Part shown: positions 19,652 through 41,414 of the stretch, in pieces
How the letters are laid out: each line of letters begins with the position of its first letter
How positions within the stretch are numbered: position 1 is the first letter of the stretch
Source: Candidatus Desantisbacteria bacterium CG1_02_49_89
Lineage (GTDB): Bacteria > Desantisbacteria > UBA1551
Length of the DNA: 41,843 nt
NCBI GenBank assembly: GCA_001871075.1
Contig: MNUP01000003.1
Location: 1 to 41,843 of the forward strand
Direction: 5' to 3'
Program-made: the position numbers and the translations under genes
Notes under the pieces: generated by a model
The model's input: only the letters and a program-made list of their open reading frames with translations
Database searches by the model: none
What the model was told of the DNA's origin: nothing

Positions 19652-19730
19652 AAAAAAAAGTGCCCTTTAGCCCCATTGTTTATGGGATCCGGACACCGTT
19701 GTCTACACACGCAGCACGTCATTGTGCCGC
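19652..19730 (-). promoter_or_regulatory. ANTAR-type dual hairpin and overlapping terminator in the gdh-carB leader
   Basis: mRNA P1 GCGGCAC-AAUGAC-GUGCUGC; P2 GAC-AACGGU-GUC; terminator GUGUCC...CCCAU-AAACA-AUGGG...GGGCAC followed by U8. Confidence 0.75.
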
Positions 19731-19758
19731 ACAGCCCATTTATAATACATTAATTAAT

Positions 19759-19786
19759 AGTATAATTAAAAAAATGATTTTGTCAA
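19759..19786 (-). promoter_or_regulatory. sigma70-type promoter of gdh-carB
   Basis: TTGACA (19786-19781), 16 nt, TATACT (19764-19759). Confidence 0.7.
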
Positions 19787-20032
19787 GCGTCGAGCAGATT
19801 TTTCAGACTCACAAAGCGCAGTCCCCCCTGTATGTTCCAAAAGAATCCCCGCGCTTAGGTTTATAAAAACCTGCGGGGACAATCCTAGTTTCTTTCATTC
19901 TATCGGAGCAAGGGGGGGCAAGTGGAGTATATTTCCGATGAAAATTCATCGGGACGCAGACCCGCCCCTTTAAATTTCCTTTTACTCCTCTCCCCTGGTG
20001 GGAGAGGATGCGGGTGAGGGGGGTGCCTTTTT

Positions 20033-21805
20033 TCATTTTTCGTAAGTGGAATAGTAATAAGGGGTCTTTGCCTCAAATTCCGCGGCGCAGGTGTCCACAA
20101 GCTTGAAACCAGGCGCAATGCCGTATTTTTTGCGCAGGTTCCTTATCGAGAGTTCGTCGGTTCCTGCAAGGCGCGCAAGCTGGGCGTCGCTGAACCCGTA
20201 TTCCTTTGCCCTGCGCAGCAGGGCAGCTGAAAGCTGAAAGCTGAAAGCTGAAAGTTTCTTGCTTTTGACCTTTGTCGCCACTTCGGCGACCCGCCGTTGA
20301 GGCGGGAGCTTTGACCTTTGAGCTTTGAGCTTGATTTCGTCCTCAAGCTCCACGATCTGCTTTATATTGTCCAGGAACCATGGGTCGATCTTTGTTATGT
20401 CATTAATTTCTTCAATTCCCATCCCTGCCTGCATGGCGTATTTAATAAAAAACACCCTTTCCGCATTCGGTGTTTTCAACCTATCTTTTATCATTTCCAG
20501 CATTTCATCGTTTATTCCTTCATTTTGACTTTTGCAATTTGCAATTTGACTTTTGACTTGCTTTGGCAGAAATTTATCATCCAGCCCCTGCGCCCCGATC
20601 TCAAGGGAGCGCAGGCCTTTCTGCAGGGCTTCCTTAAAAGTTCTCCCTATCGCCATGGTCTCGCCCACGGATTTCATCGATATCGTGAGCGCGGGGTCAG
20701 AGCCGGGGAATTTTTCAAACGTGAAACGCGGGATCTTTACCACGCAGTAATCGAGCACGGGTTCAAACGATGCGGGGGTTTCTTTGGTAATATCGTTGGG
20801 GATCTCATCAAGCGTGTACCCGACTGCAAGCTTCGCGGCGATCTTCGCTATGGGAAAGCCCGTTGCCTTGCTTGCGAGCGCGGAGCTGCGCGAGACCCTG
20901 GGGTTCATTTCAATGACCACCATCCTGCCGTTTTCAGGATTTACCGCGAACTGGATATTCGAGCCGCCGGTCTCCACGCCGATTTCCCGTATGACCGCGA
21001 TCGCCGCGTTGCGCATGATCTGGTATTCCTTATCTGACAGCGTCTGAGCAGGGGCAACGGTTATGCTGTCCCCGGTATGAACTCCCATCGGGTCAAAATT
21101 TTCTATGGAGCAGATTATTACCACGTTATCTTTTAAGTCGCGCATTACCTCGAGCTCAAATTCTTTCCAGCCGATTATGGATTCTTCGATCAAAATTTCA
21201 CTTACCATGCTTTCTTCAAGCCCCTTGGATGCAATTGTTTCAAATTCCTCAATGTTATAGGCAATTCCGCCGCCCGTTCCTCCCAGCGTGAAGCTGGGAC
21301 GGATTATCAAAGGGAATCCTGTCTCGCCGGCAATAACCCTTGCTTCTTTTATATTGTATGCCTGAGCGCTCTTCGGAAGGTCCAATCCTATTTTTATCAT
21401 TGCATCTTTAAAAAGCTGGCGGTCTTCGGCTTTTTTAATTGCCTGAAGGTTTGCACCGATCATTTTAACATTATATTTTTCAAGGATGCCTGATTCGGCG
21501 ACTTTTACGGCGATGTTAAGGGCGGTCTGCCCTCCGAGCGTCGGAAGCAGGGTATCGGGCCTTTCCCTTTCGATTATTTTCCCGGCTGTTTCCGCAGTTA
21601 TAGGCTCGATATAGGTATGTTGCGCCATTTCCGGGTCGGTCATGATCGTTGCGGGATTTGAATTTAACAGTACGATTTCGAATCCCTCGGCTCGAAGAGC
21701 CTTGCAGGCCTGCGCCCCGGAATAGTCAAACTCGCAGGCCTGGCTGATGATAATGGGCCCGGAGCCGATGATCAGAATTTTGTGTATGTCCGTTCGTTTT
21801 GGCAT
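20033..21805 (-). CDS. carB: Carbamoyl-phosphate synthase large subunit, N-terminal half only (carboxyphosphate and oligomerisation domains)
   Basis: [30 protein letters not shown] ... [25 protein letters not shown]; ends at the inter-half boundary. Confidence 0.9.
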
Positions 21806-21888
21806 TTCAACTCCAGCAAAACCGTCGAACGTCGCAAGTCGGACGTCGTTCGTTAAATTCTTTTACGTAAGACGCTCGACGTACGACG

Positions 21889-39378: not shown

Positions 39379-39395
39379 GTATCCTCCTTTCCTTA

Positions 39396-40985
39396 TTAAA
39401 AGTATTTGTTTGTTATAGGCATCCTGCGGTCCTTGCCGAATGACTTGAGCGTTATCTTGGGCCCGATAGGCGCCTGCCTTCTTTTATACTCGCTGCTGTC
39501 AACCATTTTTATCACCTTCTCAGCCAGTTTCCTGCTGAATCCCTCTTTTACGATCTCTTCAAGCGTTTTATCTTCCTCGATATAGCTGCCAAGTATCCTG
39601 TCAAGCAGAGGATAGGGCGGGAGCGTGTCCTGGTCTTTCTGGTCCGGCTTCAGTTCGGCTGTAGGCGGTCTTGACAGGATCCTTTGCGGGATAACGGGTT
39701 TAACCGAATTCCTGTGCCGGGCAAGCCTGTAAACAAGGGTCTTGTATACGTCTTTTATGAGCGCGAACCCTCCGGCCATGTCGCCGTAAAGCGTTGCGTA
39801 ACCGGTGCTCATTTCTGATTTGTTGCCGGTGCTGACCACGAGATGCCCCAGTTTGTTGGATATAGCCATTATGATATTTCCCCTGATCCTTGCCTGCAGG
39901 TTTTCCTCGGTGATGTCCCTGGGCAGGCCCGCGAACTGGTTCGCGAGCAGGCTTGTGTAGAACTCAAGCGCCCGCTGGATGGGAATTACCAGCAGTTTTA
40001 TGCCGAAGTTCCTTGCAAGCCCGTCCGCGTCCTCTCCGGATATCCGGGAAGAGAACTGCGAGGGCATGAACACGCCCAGCACGTTCTGGGCGCCTATGGC
40101 ATCAGCCGCTATCGCGGCAACCAGCGAGGAGTCAATGCCGCCGCTGAGCGCTATCACGACTTTTTTAAAATTGTTCTTGCGCGTGTAGTCCCGCAGGCTC
40201 AGCTTGAGTGCGGCGTAAACTTCTTCTTCAGGCGCCATCAGGCAATTCTTTATGGTTACATTCCTCTTTTCGCTGTCATGGGTTATCAGGTCTTCCTCGA
40301 ACGGTTTCCCCCTTGAAATTATCCTTCCTTTTTCATCAACGATGATTCCGTGCCCGTCAAAGATCAGTTCGTCCTGACCGCCTACAAGGTTATTGTAGAA
40401 GATAATAATACCGTATTTTTTTGCCAGGTTCGTTATCAATTCTTCTCTTTTTTGTATCTTTCCGTATGAATAGGGTGACGCGTTCACCGCGAAGATCGCT
40501 TTTGCCCCGCCCGCTGCCTGCTGCTTTATGGTCTCCTCGTTCCATATGTCCTCGCAGATGCTAACGCCGAACTTCAGCCCGCCTTCCGAAAAAACCTGGA
40601 ATTGTTTTCCGGCTGCGAAATATCTCTTTTCATCGAATACACCGTAATTGGGCAGAAAGACCTTCCTGTGAATGCCGCATATTTTTTTCCCGCGTATGAC
40701 AGCCGCGGCGTTATAAAGGAACTTGCCTTTTCTGTCCGCGAAACCGACGATCACAGTTGCGTTTCCGGTGTTTTCTACGACCTTTCCAAGGCATTTCAGG
40801 TTGTCTTCAATAAACCCGGTTTTGAACAGCAGGTCTTCAGGCGGGTATCCCGTAATTGTAAGCTCCGGGAACGTTATCACGTCAGCGTGCGTTTTTTCGG
40901 CTTCCTTTATATGCCTTATGCACTTCTCGGTATTGCCTTTCAGATCGCCCACGATCGTGTTTATCTGCGCCATCACTATCTTCAT
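39396..40985 (-). CDS. nadE: Glutamine-dependent NAD+ synthetase
   Basis: Nitrilase domain (FPEL, KVFLPNYGVFDEKRYF, ICED) plus synthetase domain (LSGGIDSS, ENLQARIRG, TGNKSE, PPTAELKPDQKD). Confidence 0.96.
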   Translation of the reverse strand: MKIVMAQINTIVGDLKGNTEKCIRHIKEAEKTHADVITFPELTITGYPPEDLLFKTGFIEDNLKCLGKVVENTGNATVIVGFADRKGKFLYNAAAVIRGKKICGIHRKVFLPNYGVFDEKRYFAAGKQFQVFSEGGLKFGVSICEDIWNEETIKQQAAGGAKAIFAVNASPYSYGKIQKREELITNLAKKYGIIIFYNNLVGGQDELIFDGHGIIVDEKGRIISRGKPFEEDLITHDSEKRNVTIKNCLMAPEEEVYAALKLSLRDYTRKNNFKKVVIALSGGIDSSLVAAIAADAIGAQNVLGVFMPSQFSSRISGEDADGLARNFGIKLLVIPIQRALEFYTSLLANQFAGLPRDITEENLQARIRGNIIMAISNKLGHLVVSTGNKSEMSTGYATLYGDMAGGFALIKDVYKTLVYRLARHRNSVKPVIPQRILSRPPTAELKPDQKDQDTLPPYPLLDRILGSYIEEDKTLEEIVKEGFSRKLAEKVIKMVDSSEYKRRQAPIGPKITLKSFGKDRRMPITNKYF

Positions 40986-41092
40986 TTATTTTCCTTATGA
41001 TTACACAGATTTTGAACTGACGATTACTCAGATTAAGAATCGGTGTAATCTATCTGGAAATCAGTGTAATCATTCCGCTGGATTTTCAGCGG

Positions 41093-41203
41093 AAAAAGAA
41101 AAAGGCGTCCCCGGGTCATTCAATTCACCTTTAGGGTGAATCATCTTTGACCTGAGGACGCCTGTATCCTCGCAATTTAGATTACTTTGATCCGTGTAAT
41201 CTA
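41093..41203 (-). promoter_or_regulatory. Second (distal) ANTAR-type attenuator in the nadE-glnA leader
   Basis: P2 GAGGAU-ACAGGC-GUCCUC overlaps terminator AGGCGUCCUCAGGUCA...UGACCCGGGGACGCCU-UUUUCUUUUU; upstream hairpin UAGAUUAC...GUAAUCUA. Confidence 0.7.
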
Positions 41204-41344
41204 CCGCACTGGTTATCGCTGTGCGGTTCCGATCATCTTGTAATCGCTGTCATCGCAGTTTTTATCGCTGCGATCGTTTTTTAAATAAGAACCTGCTTCG
41301 CAGAACCTTGTTACTTGGCAACTAAGCGTCGTTGGCAAGTCGCA

Positions 41345-41414
41345 ATAAAAAAACCTTCTATCCCGGCTGCGGGACAGAAGGCTCCTTTACCTTCTCAACA
41401 CTTCATCATGTTGA
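41345..41414 (-). promoter_or_regulatory. ANTAR dual hairpin and terminator (proximal) in the nadE-glnA-glt leader
   Basis: P1 UCAACAU-GAUGAA-GUGUUGA; P2 GAAGGU-AAAGGA-GCCUUC; terminator GCCUUCUGUCCCG-CAGC-CGGGAUAGAAGGU-UUUUUU. Confidence 0.85.

Follow-up and report, generated by a model that had tools for sequence, protein, structure and literature searches.

Nitrogen genes of the window

The stretch of DNA analysed here, referred to as the window, comprises positions 1 to 41,843 of contig MNUP01000003.1 from Candidatus Desantisbacteria bacterium CG1_02_49_89, and our view of this genome is that one 42-kb stretch of contig. It carries genes for nitrogen assimilation and glutamine metabolism and a gene for a one-component regulator with a GAF and an ANTAR domain. 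All of the nitrogen and glutamine genes lie on the minus strand (Pfam, NCBIfam; coordinates in descending order denote this strand) and probably form four units, namely nadE-glnA-GOGAT (glutamate synthase), a glt-like gene followed by a nucleotidyltransferase and the GAF-ANTAR gene, carA with a half-length carB, and gdh, possibly with a second carB. The leaders of these units, and their probable control by the GAF-ANTAR protein, are the subject of this study.

The first unit begins with nadE, encoding a glutamine-dependent NAD+ synthase (40985..39396), and glnA (39378..37945), which are followed by an archaeal-type split glutamate synthase encoded by five genes with the domains GATase_2 (37832..36726), Glu_synthase/FMN (36667..35051), Fer4 (34937..34497), Pyr_redox_2 (34154..32868) and GXGXG (32759..32031). 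These seven genes (32031..40985) presumably form one transcription unit, or several; the spacers of 112, 113 and 342 nt among them contain repeats and, in a promoter/terminator scan, no strong promoter. The 342-nt spacer (34155-34496), 5' of the Pyr_redox_2 gene, carries two GC-rich hairpins without U-runs and short repeats of the CACGAAA type.

In the second unit, the glt-like gene (26240..24624) encodes a 538-aa protein with a weak match to PF01645 and none to NCBIfam profiles, whose name, "FMN-binding glutamate synthase family", comes from Atlas cluster names. It is followed by a gene for a small Pol-beta-type nucleotidyltransferase (24595..24125, PF01909/PF18765) and, in series with gaps of 28 and 42 nt, by the gene of the 231-aa GAF-ANTAR regulator (24082..23387, Pfam), the only ANTAR gene of the window. 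The location of this gene inside a controlled transcript, proposed in a first-pass annotation of the sequence, was thus borne out, and the order is the same in the closest related locus (L001, see below). The nucleotidyltransferase is also kept between the two other genes there (9532-9987) and might modify a component of the system.

The third unit consists of carA (23088..21889) and a 590-aa half-length carB that resembles the N-terminal half (21805..20033). The fourth consists of gdh (19643..18312), with which a full-length carB of 1097 aa (18182..14889) is possibly co-transcribed; the 129-nt spacer between them (18183-18311) is a long AT-rich inverted repeat. The window thus has two carB genes, an N-terminal-half-like copy beside carA and a full copy after gdh, and the arrangement of half-carB next to carA recurs in loci L001 and L036. 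The first-pass annotation had drawn the regulon as 19652..41414, which omits gdh itself and the full carB (14889..19643). As it had stated, no NtrB/C, GlnR or PII domain was found among the 34 open reading frames (ORFs) of the window scanned with Pfam.

Promoters and leader attenuators

The four top sigma-70 matches on the minus strand sit in front of carA, the glt-like gene, gdh and nadE, each with 16 nt between the two boxes. The carA promoter (TTGACA, TATAAT, 23294..23267) agrees with the consensus at 12 of 12 positions, while those of the glt-like operon (TTGACA, TATACT, 26653..26626), gdh (TTGACA, TATACT, 19786..19759) and the nadE operon (TTGACT, TATAAT, 41446..41419, with a TG before the -10 box) agree at 11 of 12. 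A first hairpin (P1) comes within about 10-30 nt after each promoter, and is followed by a second hairpin with a hexaloop (P2) and an intrinsic terminator, as found both by direct reading and by folding. The four promoter-leader modules can be aligned over their full length as a single module.

The 5' arm of each of the four terminators starts with the 3' arm of P2, a U-run of 5-8 follows the terminator stem, and folding makes P2 and the terminator mutually exclusive. At minimum energy every leader folds into P1 plus terminator, and the fold z-scores are -6.5 (carA), -8.7 (nadE), -4.7 (glt-like) and -2.3 (gdh). The first-pass description of four minus-strand promoters followed by hairpin pairs, the second of which overlaps a terminator, therefore holds for every leader. 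Its statement that the loops fit a consensus with A at position 1 and G at position 4 (A1/G4) holds for P2 in all four (AAUGGA in carA, AAAGGA in nadE, AGAGCU in the glt-like leader and AACGGU in gdh) and for P1 in two (carA AAUGUA, gdh AAUGAC), so that both loops conform only in carA and gdh. The linkers between P1 and P2 are short, 0-1 nt in carA, nadE and the glt-like leader and 7 nt in gdh.

The carA and gdh leaders hold one attenuator each and those of nadE and the glt-like operon two in tandem. The carA attenuator (23262..23196) has the P1 and P2 loops given above and a terminator with U-run. In the gdh attenuator (19730..19652), P1 (19730..19711), the linker and P2 are followed by a long-range terminator (GUGUCC/GGGCAC) with a U8 run. 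The gdh start codon is closely preceded by a CCUCCC/GGGGAGG hairpin (19615-19652), which could hide the Shine-Dalgarno sequence of this gene.

The first nadE attenuator (41414..41345) comprises P1 (41414..41395, loop GAUGAA), P2 (41394..41377) and a terminator from 41382 with U-run. About 200 nt further downstream lies the second (41202..41095, z -6.8), made of a hairpin (41202..41179), a hexaloop hairpin (41171..41154, loop ACAGGC) and a long-range terminator (41163..41103) with U-run; the ACAGGC loop that the first-pass annotation assigned to nadE is real and belongs here. The first glt-like attenuator (26617..26545), which is conserved in L001, comprises P1 (26617..26598, loop GGUUAU), P2 (26596..26581) and a 13-bp terminator (26585..26556) with a U8 run. 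In the second (26438..26350, z -6.1), a hairpin with loop AAGGAC overlaps the 5' arm of a long-range terminator with a U9 run, and the inner hairpin reads GUAGAG-GAUGAC-CUCUAC. The nadE and glt-like leaders as a whole are about 380-430 nt long and heavily structured (z about -10).

Hairpins with an A..G.. hexaloop and a stem of at least 4 bp occur 56 times on the plus and 55 times on the minus strand of the window. Since they are so frequent by chance, the loops alone prove little, and the evidence for the element is its position after consensus promoters, its overlap with terminators and its conservation in other genomes. A naive search for paired A..G.. hexaloop hairpins was accordingly unspecific, and it missed the carA pair because the stems of that pair overlap; scans anchored on terminators were used instead. 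Rfam gave no match at gathering score and nothing relevant at E-values up to 10 over 19600..41843, and PyrR-type or riboswitch control of the carA leader found no support from any Rfam family.

Covariance models and occurrence in related loci

Eighty loci around GAF-ANTAR homologues were fetched, each oriented with the homologue on the plus strand. A first covariance model, R1, was built from an alignment of 11 clear dual-hairpin examples, from which L054 was left out because its P2 stem has almost only weak pairs. In this alignment, whose rows were preselected for hairpin formation, 95.2% of stem cells were paired, versus 76.1% after shuffling and 35-42% when the stems were slid, and both sides changed in 11 of the 12 pairs, a covariation that has to be read with the preselection in mind. 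R1 gave 28 locus hits with E-values of at most 1, of which 7 were training rows, and every one of the 28 lay on the plus strand. A second model, R2, was trained only on these locus hits, i.e. on other genomes.

The top five R2 sites in the window were the four leaders and the second nadE attenuator, with E-values of 7.6e-6, 8.1e-4, 0.011, 0.025 and 0.045. In detail, R1 and R2 scored the first nadE attenuator at 43.5 and 38.2 bits (R2 E 7.6e-6), the carA attenuator at 36.6 and 28.6 bits (8.1e-4), the gdh attenuator at 32.7 and 23.2 bits (0.011), the first glt-like attenuator at 35.7 and 21.5 bits (0.025), and the second nadE attenuator at 16.2 bits (E 0.18) and 20.3 bits (0.045). A scan with an ANTAR-target model, which had been suggested as a check on the first-pass annotation, thus returned the proposed sites at the top. 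A further candidate, a translational ANTAR site over the ribosome-binding site and start codon of the full-length carB (18203..18167, loops AAAGGG and AAAGCU), was rejected as its score fell from 18.6 bits (E 0.057) with R1 to 12.2 bits (E 2.3) with R2.

An unbiased scan covered both strands of the window and the 80 loci (1.15 Mb) for a hexaloop hairpin of at least 4 bp whose 3' arm starts a terminator stem of at least 7 bp followed by a T-run, the loop sequence being left free. It returned 106 matches, 36 of them with A1 and G4, where our own arithmetic for equiprobable bases gives an expectation of about 1 in 16. Within the loci, the A1/G4 elements fell on the GAF-ANTAR strand 31 times and on the opposite strand twice; for all elements the figures were 64 and 37. 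G4 is kept in the P2 loops of the relatives and position 1 is A or G, several G1/G4 loops lying in the same P2 stem context, so that R1-N-N-G4, with A or G at the first position, was taken as the working consensus for the loop. A P1 hexaloop with A or G at position 1 and G4 lies upstream of 17 of 41 locus elements, compared with 2 of 57 controls. Tandem elements are common in the loci (three in L018, for example).

Genes of nitrogen assimilation again lie behind these elements. An element lies at most 152 nt upstream of 7 of 15 gdh homologues (L003, L011, L021, L026, L033, L037, L061), within 260 nt of 6 of the 13 glt-like homologues in the 80 loci, upstream of the split glutamate synthase in 4 of 4 cases, and upstream of gltB in L005 and L067. 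Behind elements were also found amt-glnB (L024, L060, L064, L078), amt without glnB, either as third ORF (L069) or alone (L079, L080), glnA or GSIII (L024, L060, L061, L064, L067, L074), the latter often with GATase and nadE after it, GATase-guaA-pyrG (L001) and pyrG (L061). The regulator gene itself is behind an element in L010, L018, L036 and L054. In addition, carA-carB, nadE, gdh or glt-like genes directly follow GAF-ANTAR genes in other genomes, for example in L001, L010, L012, L015, L020, L032 and L036. The same RNA element therefore precedes nitrogen-assimilation genes in other genomes that have GAF-ANTAR homologues and, judged by sequence, the leaders of the window are ANTAR-type attenuators, as the first-pass annotation had supposed.

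The closest locus, L001, comes from a Desantisbacteria metagenome-assembled genome (MAG), has a regulator 76% identical to that of the window, and shows the same gene order of glt-like gene, nucleotidyltransferase, GAF-ANTAR, carA and half-carB. Its glt-like leader aligns with that of the window across both attenuators, and the loop of the inner hairpin of attenuator 2 is AAUGAC in L001 versus GAUGAC in the window.

The GAF-ANTAR regulator

The ANTAR domain of the window protein (PF03861, residues 172-223) scores 71.8 bits against a cut-off of 27.3, and its sequence matches the ANTAR domains of Rv1626 (1s8n), EutV (6wsh) and NasR (4akk). Here and below, statements on published systems follow those parts of the cited papers that were available. 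The RNA-contact residues of EutV are Lys143, Tyr164 and Met172 (PMC8934654). In a HMMER alignment to 6wsh the corresponding columns hold K, F and M in the window protein, the Tyr being replaced by Phe, if the offset of 2 between the 6wsh chain and the numbering of that paper is as we take it. The AlphaFold (AF2) model has a predicted local distance difference test score of 90 and shows a single long helix (144-191) that joins the GAF domain to the ANTAR bundle.

The sensor domain matches GAF_2 with 93.3 bits (Pfam). Its nearest relatives by sequence are 3ci6 (E 3.4e-12), 3trc and Nlh1, the nearest NCBIfam profiles are PRK11061 (PtsP) and TIGR01817 (nifA), and the top ranks by fold are 3ci6, 3trc and 4g3v, with just 19-27% identity over the domain. 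The window GAF is thus closest to the nitrogen-sensing GAF domains of PtsP/EI-Ntr and NifA-like proteins. The GAF domain of NifA binds 2-oxoglutarate. As that of EI-Ntr, to which the window GAF is related, binds glutamine (PMC4848567), glutamine and 2-oxoglutarate are the leading candidates for the ligand.

At least 7,414 proteins among the 8,000 candidates scored belong to the GAF-ANTAR family at E-values of at most 0.001, and its named members belong to MAGs labelled Omnitrophota, Desantisbacteria and Nitrospiria. Two GAF-ANTAR paralogues are present in L001, L016, L033 and L054.

Proposed antitermination regulon

Taken together, these features make it probable that the four units form an ANTAR antitermination regulon run by the GAF-ANTAR protein of the window, with a nitrogen-status input through the GAF domain and positive feedback. 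The promoters would be strong and constitutive, and the default outcome would be termination in the 5' leader. The regulator, probably acting as a dimer through the long connecting helix of the structural model, would bind the nascent leader at its hexaloop hairpins, where G4 would be the base that matters most. Binding would stabilise P2, the terminator stem could then not form, and RNA polymerase would read through; at the second glt-like attenuator it would be the first hairpin, rather than P2, that is stabilised. A nitrogen-status metabolite, for which glutamine or 2-oxoglutarate are the obvious candidates, would set the RNA-binding activity through the GAF domain. The two serial attenuators on nadE-glnA-GOGAT and on the regulator's own operon may sharpen the response, and since the regulator gene lies behind two attenuators, read-through would raise the level of the regulator. 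The positive autoregulation of the first-pass annotation fits the placement of the gene in a controlled operon here and in the loci listed above; this placement is not general, as an element lies at most 400 nt upstream in only 4 of 86 GAF-ANTAR matches.

Several observations weigh against this model. The P1 loops of nadE (GAUGAA, with G1 and G4) and of the glt-like leader (GGUUAU) depart from A1/G4, a P1 with an A1/G4 hexaloop lies upstream of only 9 of 41 locus elements (controls 1 of 57), and the gdh P2 stem has only 3 contiguous base pairs. The second glt-like attenuator is weak in both models (R1 13.4 bits, E 0.73; R2 9.8 bits, E 7.2); its sequence is strongly conserved in L001. Full independence cannot be claimed for R2, since its training hits had been selected with R1, itself seeded with the window leaders, and no curated model confirms the element, as Rfam gave no match. 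By our own reading, roughly half or more of the 80 loci have no element within 10 kb. Relatives of carA and nadE have no element directly upstream (0 of 4 and 0 of 10, respectively) and lie within longer operons behind GAF-ANTAR or GSIII; the dedicated carA and nadE leaders are peculiar to this genome. Placing gdh and glutamine synthetase-GOGAT under one switch is physiologically odd. Promoters, alternative RNA structures, conservation and co-orientation, regulon gene content and domain relationships were computed directly, and from these we infer RNA binding by this protein and read-through, together with the direction of the response, the ligand and the operon boundaries. Finally, another ANTAR protein may be encoded elsewhere in the genome, and other candidate operator motifs suggest additional regulators.

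Additional motifs and alternative explanations

The latter motifs are of three kinds. The near-palindrome ATGTGACAT(TTT) is found 6 times at 41478..41841 upstream of the nadE promoter, in both orientations and with no more than 1 mismatch; over the window, ATGTGACAT has 10 matches at up to 2 mismatches versus 4.05 expected. This may be an operator cluster for a transcription factor. A 22-nt element, AAAAATCTGYYCGACGCTTGAC, has 3 matches (19782-19803, 23290-23311, 41442-41463) versus 0 expected and runs into the -35 boxes of the gdh, carA and nadE promoters but is absent from the glt-like promoter. We take it for either a duplicated promoter module or a binding site.

The third motif, the GATTAC 13-mer GATTACNNNGATT, is present in 32 copies at up to 1 mismatch, compared with 3.07 expected. 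The copies are almost all intergenic, are spaced by about 23 nt, have both orientations and precede genes on both strands (1106-1314, 3614-3648, 11758-11852, 23128-23186, 26266-26345, 34177-34189, 34953-35035, 37848-37939, 40999-41071 and 41180-41254). The nadE and glt-like leaders carry two forward copies and two reverse ones after the last terminator and before the ribosome-binding site; in the minimum-energy fold these copies pair together. The 13-mer is a candidate operator array, RNA element or dispersed repeat; as only 6 exact matches occur in 1.1 Mb of the related loci, it may be a lineage-specific repeat.

With these motifs in hand, we consider it a serious possibility, a little short of even, that the ANTAR layer is one of several and that transcription factors reading DNA motifs carry much of the nitrogen control, which is compatible with a GAF-ANTAR regulon. 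The ATGTGACAT cluster upstream of the nadE promoter, the 22-nt element at three of the -35 boxes, and the GATTACNNNGATT arrays that the nadE, glt-like and carA leaders carry after the last terminator and ahead of the start codon all speak for it. However, none of these motifs could be tied to a known regulator, and the GATTAC 13-mer also stands before unrelated genes of either strand and hardly occurs in the related loci. The regulon cannot be called self-contained or the work of one protein, as the first-pass annotation did: this is not to be judged from 42 kb that hold other candidate operator motifs, and in related loci the PII gene glnB adjoins amt under the same element.

It is unlikely that the attenuators are real but are read by something other than the GAF-ANTAR protein of the window. 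Under this reading a second ANTAR protein, for instance a response regulator like those of Firmicutes, could come from a gene outside the window, a different RNA-binding protein could take its place, or the nadE and glt-like leaders could respond to a metabolite directly. Such a reader would be in keeping with the 42-kb limit of the view, with the REC-ANTAR proteins that serve the ANTAR nitrogen regulons described in the published work available, with the paralogues in the four loci named above, and with the size and structure of the nadE and glt-like leaders, which exceed the needs of an ANTAR site. Yet the element is co-located and co-oriented with GAF-ANTAR genes (31 versus 2 in the scan, 28 of 28 with R1), the regulator is embedded in a controlled operon in both the window and L001, and no Rfam riboswitch was found at gathering score or at E-values up to 10. 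That the hairpins and terminators are unregulated, being leaky terminators or transcript-stabilising hairpins with coincidental A1/G4 loops, is hardly credible: A..G.. hexaloop hairpins do arise about 55 times per window strand by chance, two of the four P1 loops are off consensus and the genome is rich in intergenic repeats and hairpins, but all four P2 loops fit and overlap terminators right behind the four strongest promoters, the other-genome model R2 picks the same sites, and the element recurs beside GAF-ANTAR genes elsewhere with a strong strand bias and nitrogen genes downstream.

Comparison with known ANTAR systems

ANTAR antitermination has already been linked to nitrogen metabolism. 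The dual-hexaloop target was defined by Ramesh et al. in 2012, who also predicted ANTAR regulons "thematically related to nitrogen management", with PII, ammonium transporters and synthases for glutamate, glutamine and arginine among the members (PMC3369931). Part 2 of supplementary file 6 of that paper places elements before glutamine synthetase, glutamate synthase, amt/PII, asparagine synthase, an "uncharacterized NAD+ synthetase" and the ANTAR response regulators themselves (PMC3369931). The first-pass annotation had called the control of carA/carB, gdh and nadE by this route unusual. Regulons of this kind with glutamine synthetase, GOGAT, amt, PII and NAD+ synthetase were thus predicted in 2012, and gdh is a common member in the present clade (7 of 15); what stands is that "carbamoyl" and "glutamate dehydrogenase" are absent from the text of the seven supplementary files.

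The regulons predicted in Desulfotomaculum, Moorella, Pelotomaculum and others resemble the present one in their targets, in the several elements per genome, some of them in tandem, and in having an ANTAR gene behind an element. They differ in that their regulators are response-regulator ANTARs rather than GAF-ANTAR proteins, and in that the lineages are Firmicutes and Deltaproteobacteria, while those considered here are uncultured Omnitrophota- and Desantisbacteria-type MAGs. The eut leaders of Enterococcus faecalis share the recognition of A1/G4 hexaloops by an ANTAR protein (PMC3369931, PMC8934654), the overlap of the second hairpin with an intrinsic terminator and the presence of several attenuators per regulon. 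EutV, however, is a phosphorylated response regulator for ethanolamine, whereas here a one-component GAF sensor would serve nitrogen-assimilation targets; loop position 1 is A in the eut leaders and A or G here. The invariant G4 and the looser P1 of the present element agree with a structure-based model in which one hexaloop carrying G4 is the least that an ANTAR target requires (PMC8934654).

NasR of Klebsiella oxytoca, a NIT-ANTAR protein, is likewise a one-component, ligand-sensing ANTAR antiterminator of nitrogen genes. It has a NIT sensor and controls one nitrate-assimilation operon, in contrast to the GAF sensor and the four general nitrogen-assimilation units proposed here. The EI-Ntr (PtsP) and NifA-like proteins, whose GAF domains are closest to that of the window protein, have a phosphotransferase enzyme or an AAA+ activator as output in place of ANTAR. 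To our knowledge, every characterised ANTAR regulator is a response regulator, a pseudo-receiver, a NIT protein or a LOV protein. NasR and PAL (PAS/LOV-ANTAR) are the two characterised one-component ANTARs named in PMC7496416. In Geobacter sulfurreducens, GnfK/GnfR also act by ANTAR antitermination of nitrogen genes with leader terminators, but GnfR is a response regulator beneath a sigma-54/GnfLM cascade, and gdhA, which is repressed while nitrogen is being fixed, is governed by GnfM at its promoter rather than by antitermination (PMC2995071). The available parts of the 2012 paper, of a 2020 paper and of a 2025 review state or imply that no GAF-ANTAR protein has been characterised, and our literature search found no paper on GAF-ANTAR control of nitrogen genes. 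The feature described here would thus be a new sensor class and a wider target set within a known control system, and not a new principle.

The GAF-ANTAR regulon of the window suggests a broader proposal, which we offer tentatively and would sooner doubt than believe. According to it, the GAF-ANTAR proteins of the clade, with at least 7,400 homologues in MAGs labelled Omnitrophota, Desantisbacteria, Elusimicrobia, Nitrospirota and others, would be one-component sensors of glutamine or 2-oxoglutarate and the master switch of a "glutamine economy" regulon, acting wholly through leader attenuators, single or in tandem, behind constitutive promoters. Its members would be Amt/PII, glutamine synthetase, GOGAT, glutamate dehydrogenase and the main glutamine amidotransferases, CarA, NadE, GuaA and PyrG. 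If this is true, GAF-ANTAR proteins do in uncultured lineages what NtrBC, GlnR/TnrA or NtcA do elsewhere.

The present locus and its relatives give a first view of possible nitrogen-assimilation control in uncultured phyla and widen the predicted set of ANTAR targets to carAB, gdh, guaA and pyrG. They are also a testable case, offering a protein of 231 aa, six short RNA targets whose alternative folds are clear, and few candidate ligands. Search models for ANTAR targets should benefit from the tandem attenuators and from the observation that loop position 1 tolerates G.

Other features of the window

The nadE, glt-like and gdh promoters are preceded, at a distance of 150-250 nt, by similar hairpins with a C/T-rich and then a G/A-rich arm, of the type CCTCACC...ATCCTCTCCC...GGGGAGAGG (about 41645-41700, 26700-26760 and 19975-20025, respectively), which look like REP-type repeats. 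Between the GOGAT genes and the glt-like promoter, a plus-strand island (26984..32003) encodes a LexA/S24-like repressor, two ORFs without family, an N6 DNA methylase and a type I specificity subunit, the last two being part of a type I restriction-modification system. The GC content drops to 0.30-0.34 over 28-32 kb, and the island is probably a mobile insertion.

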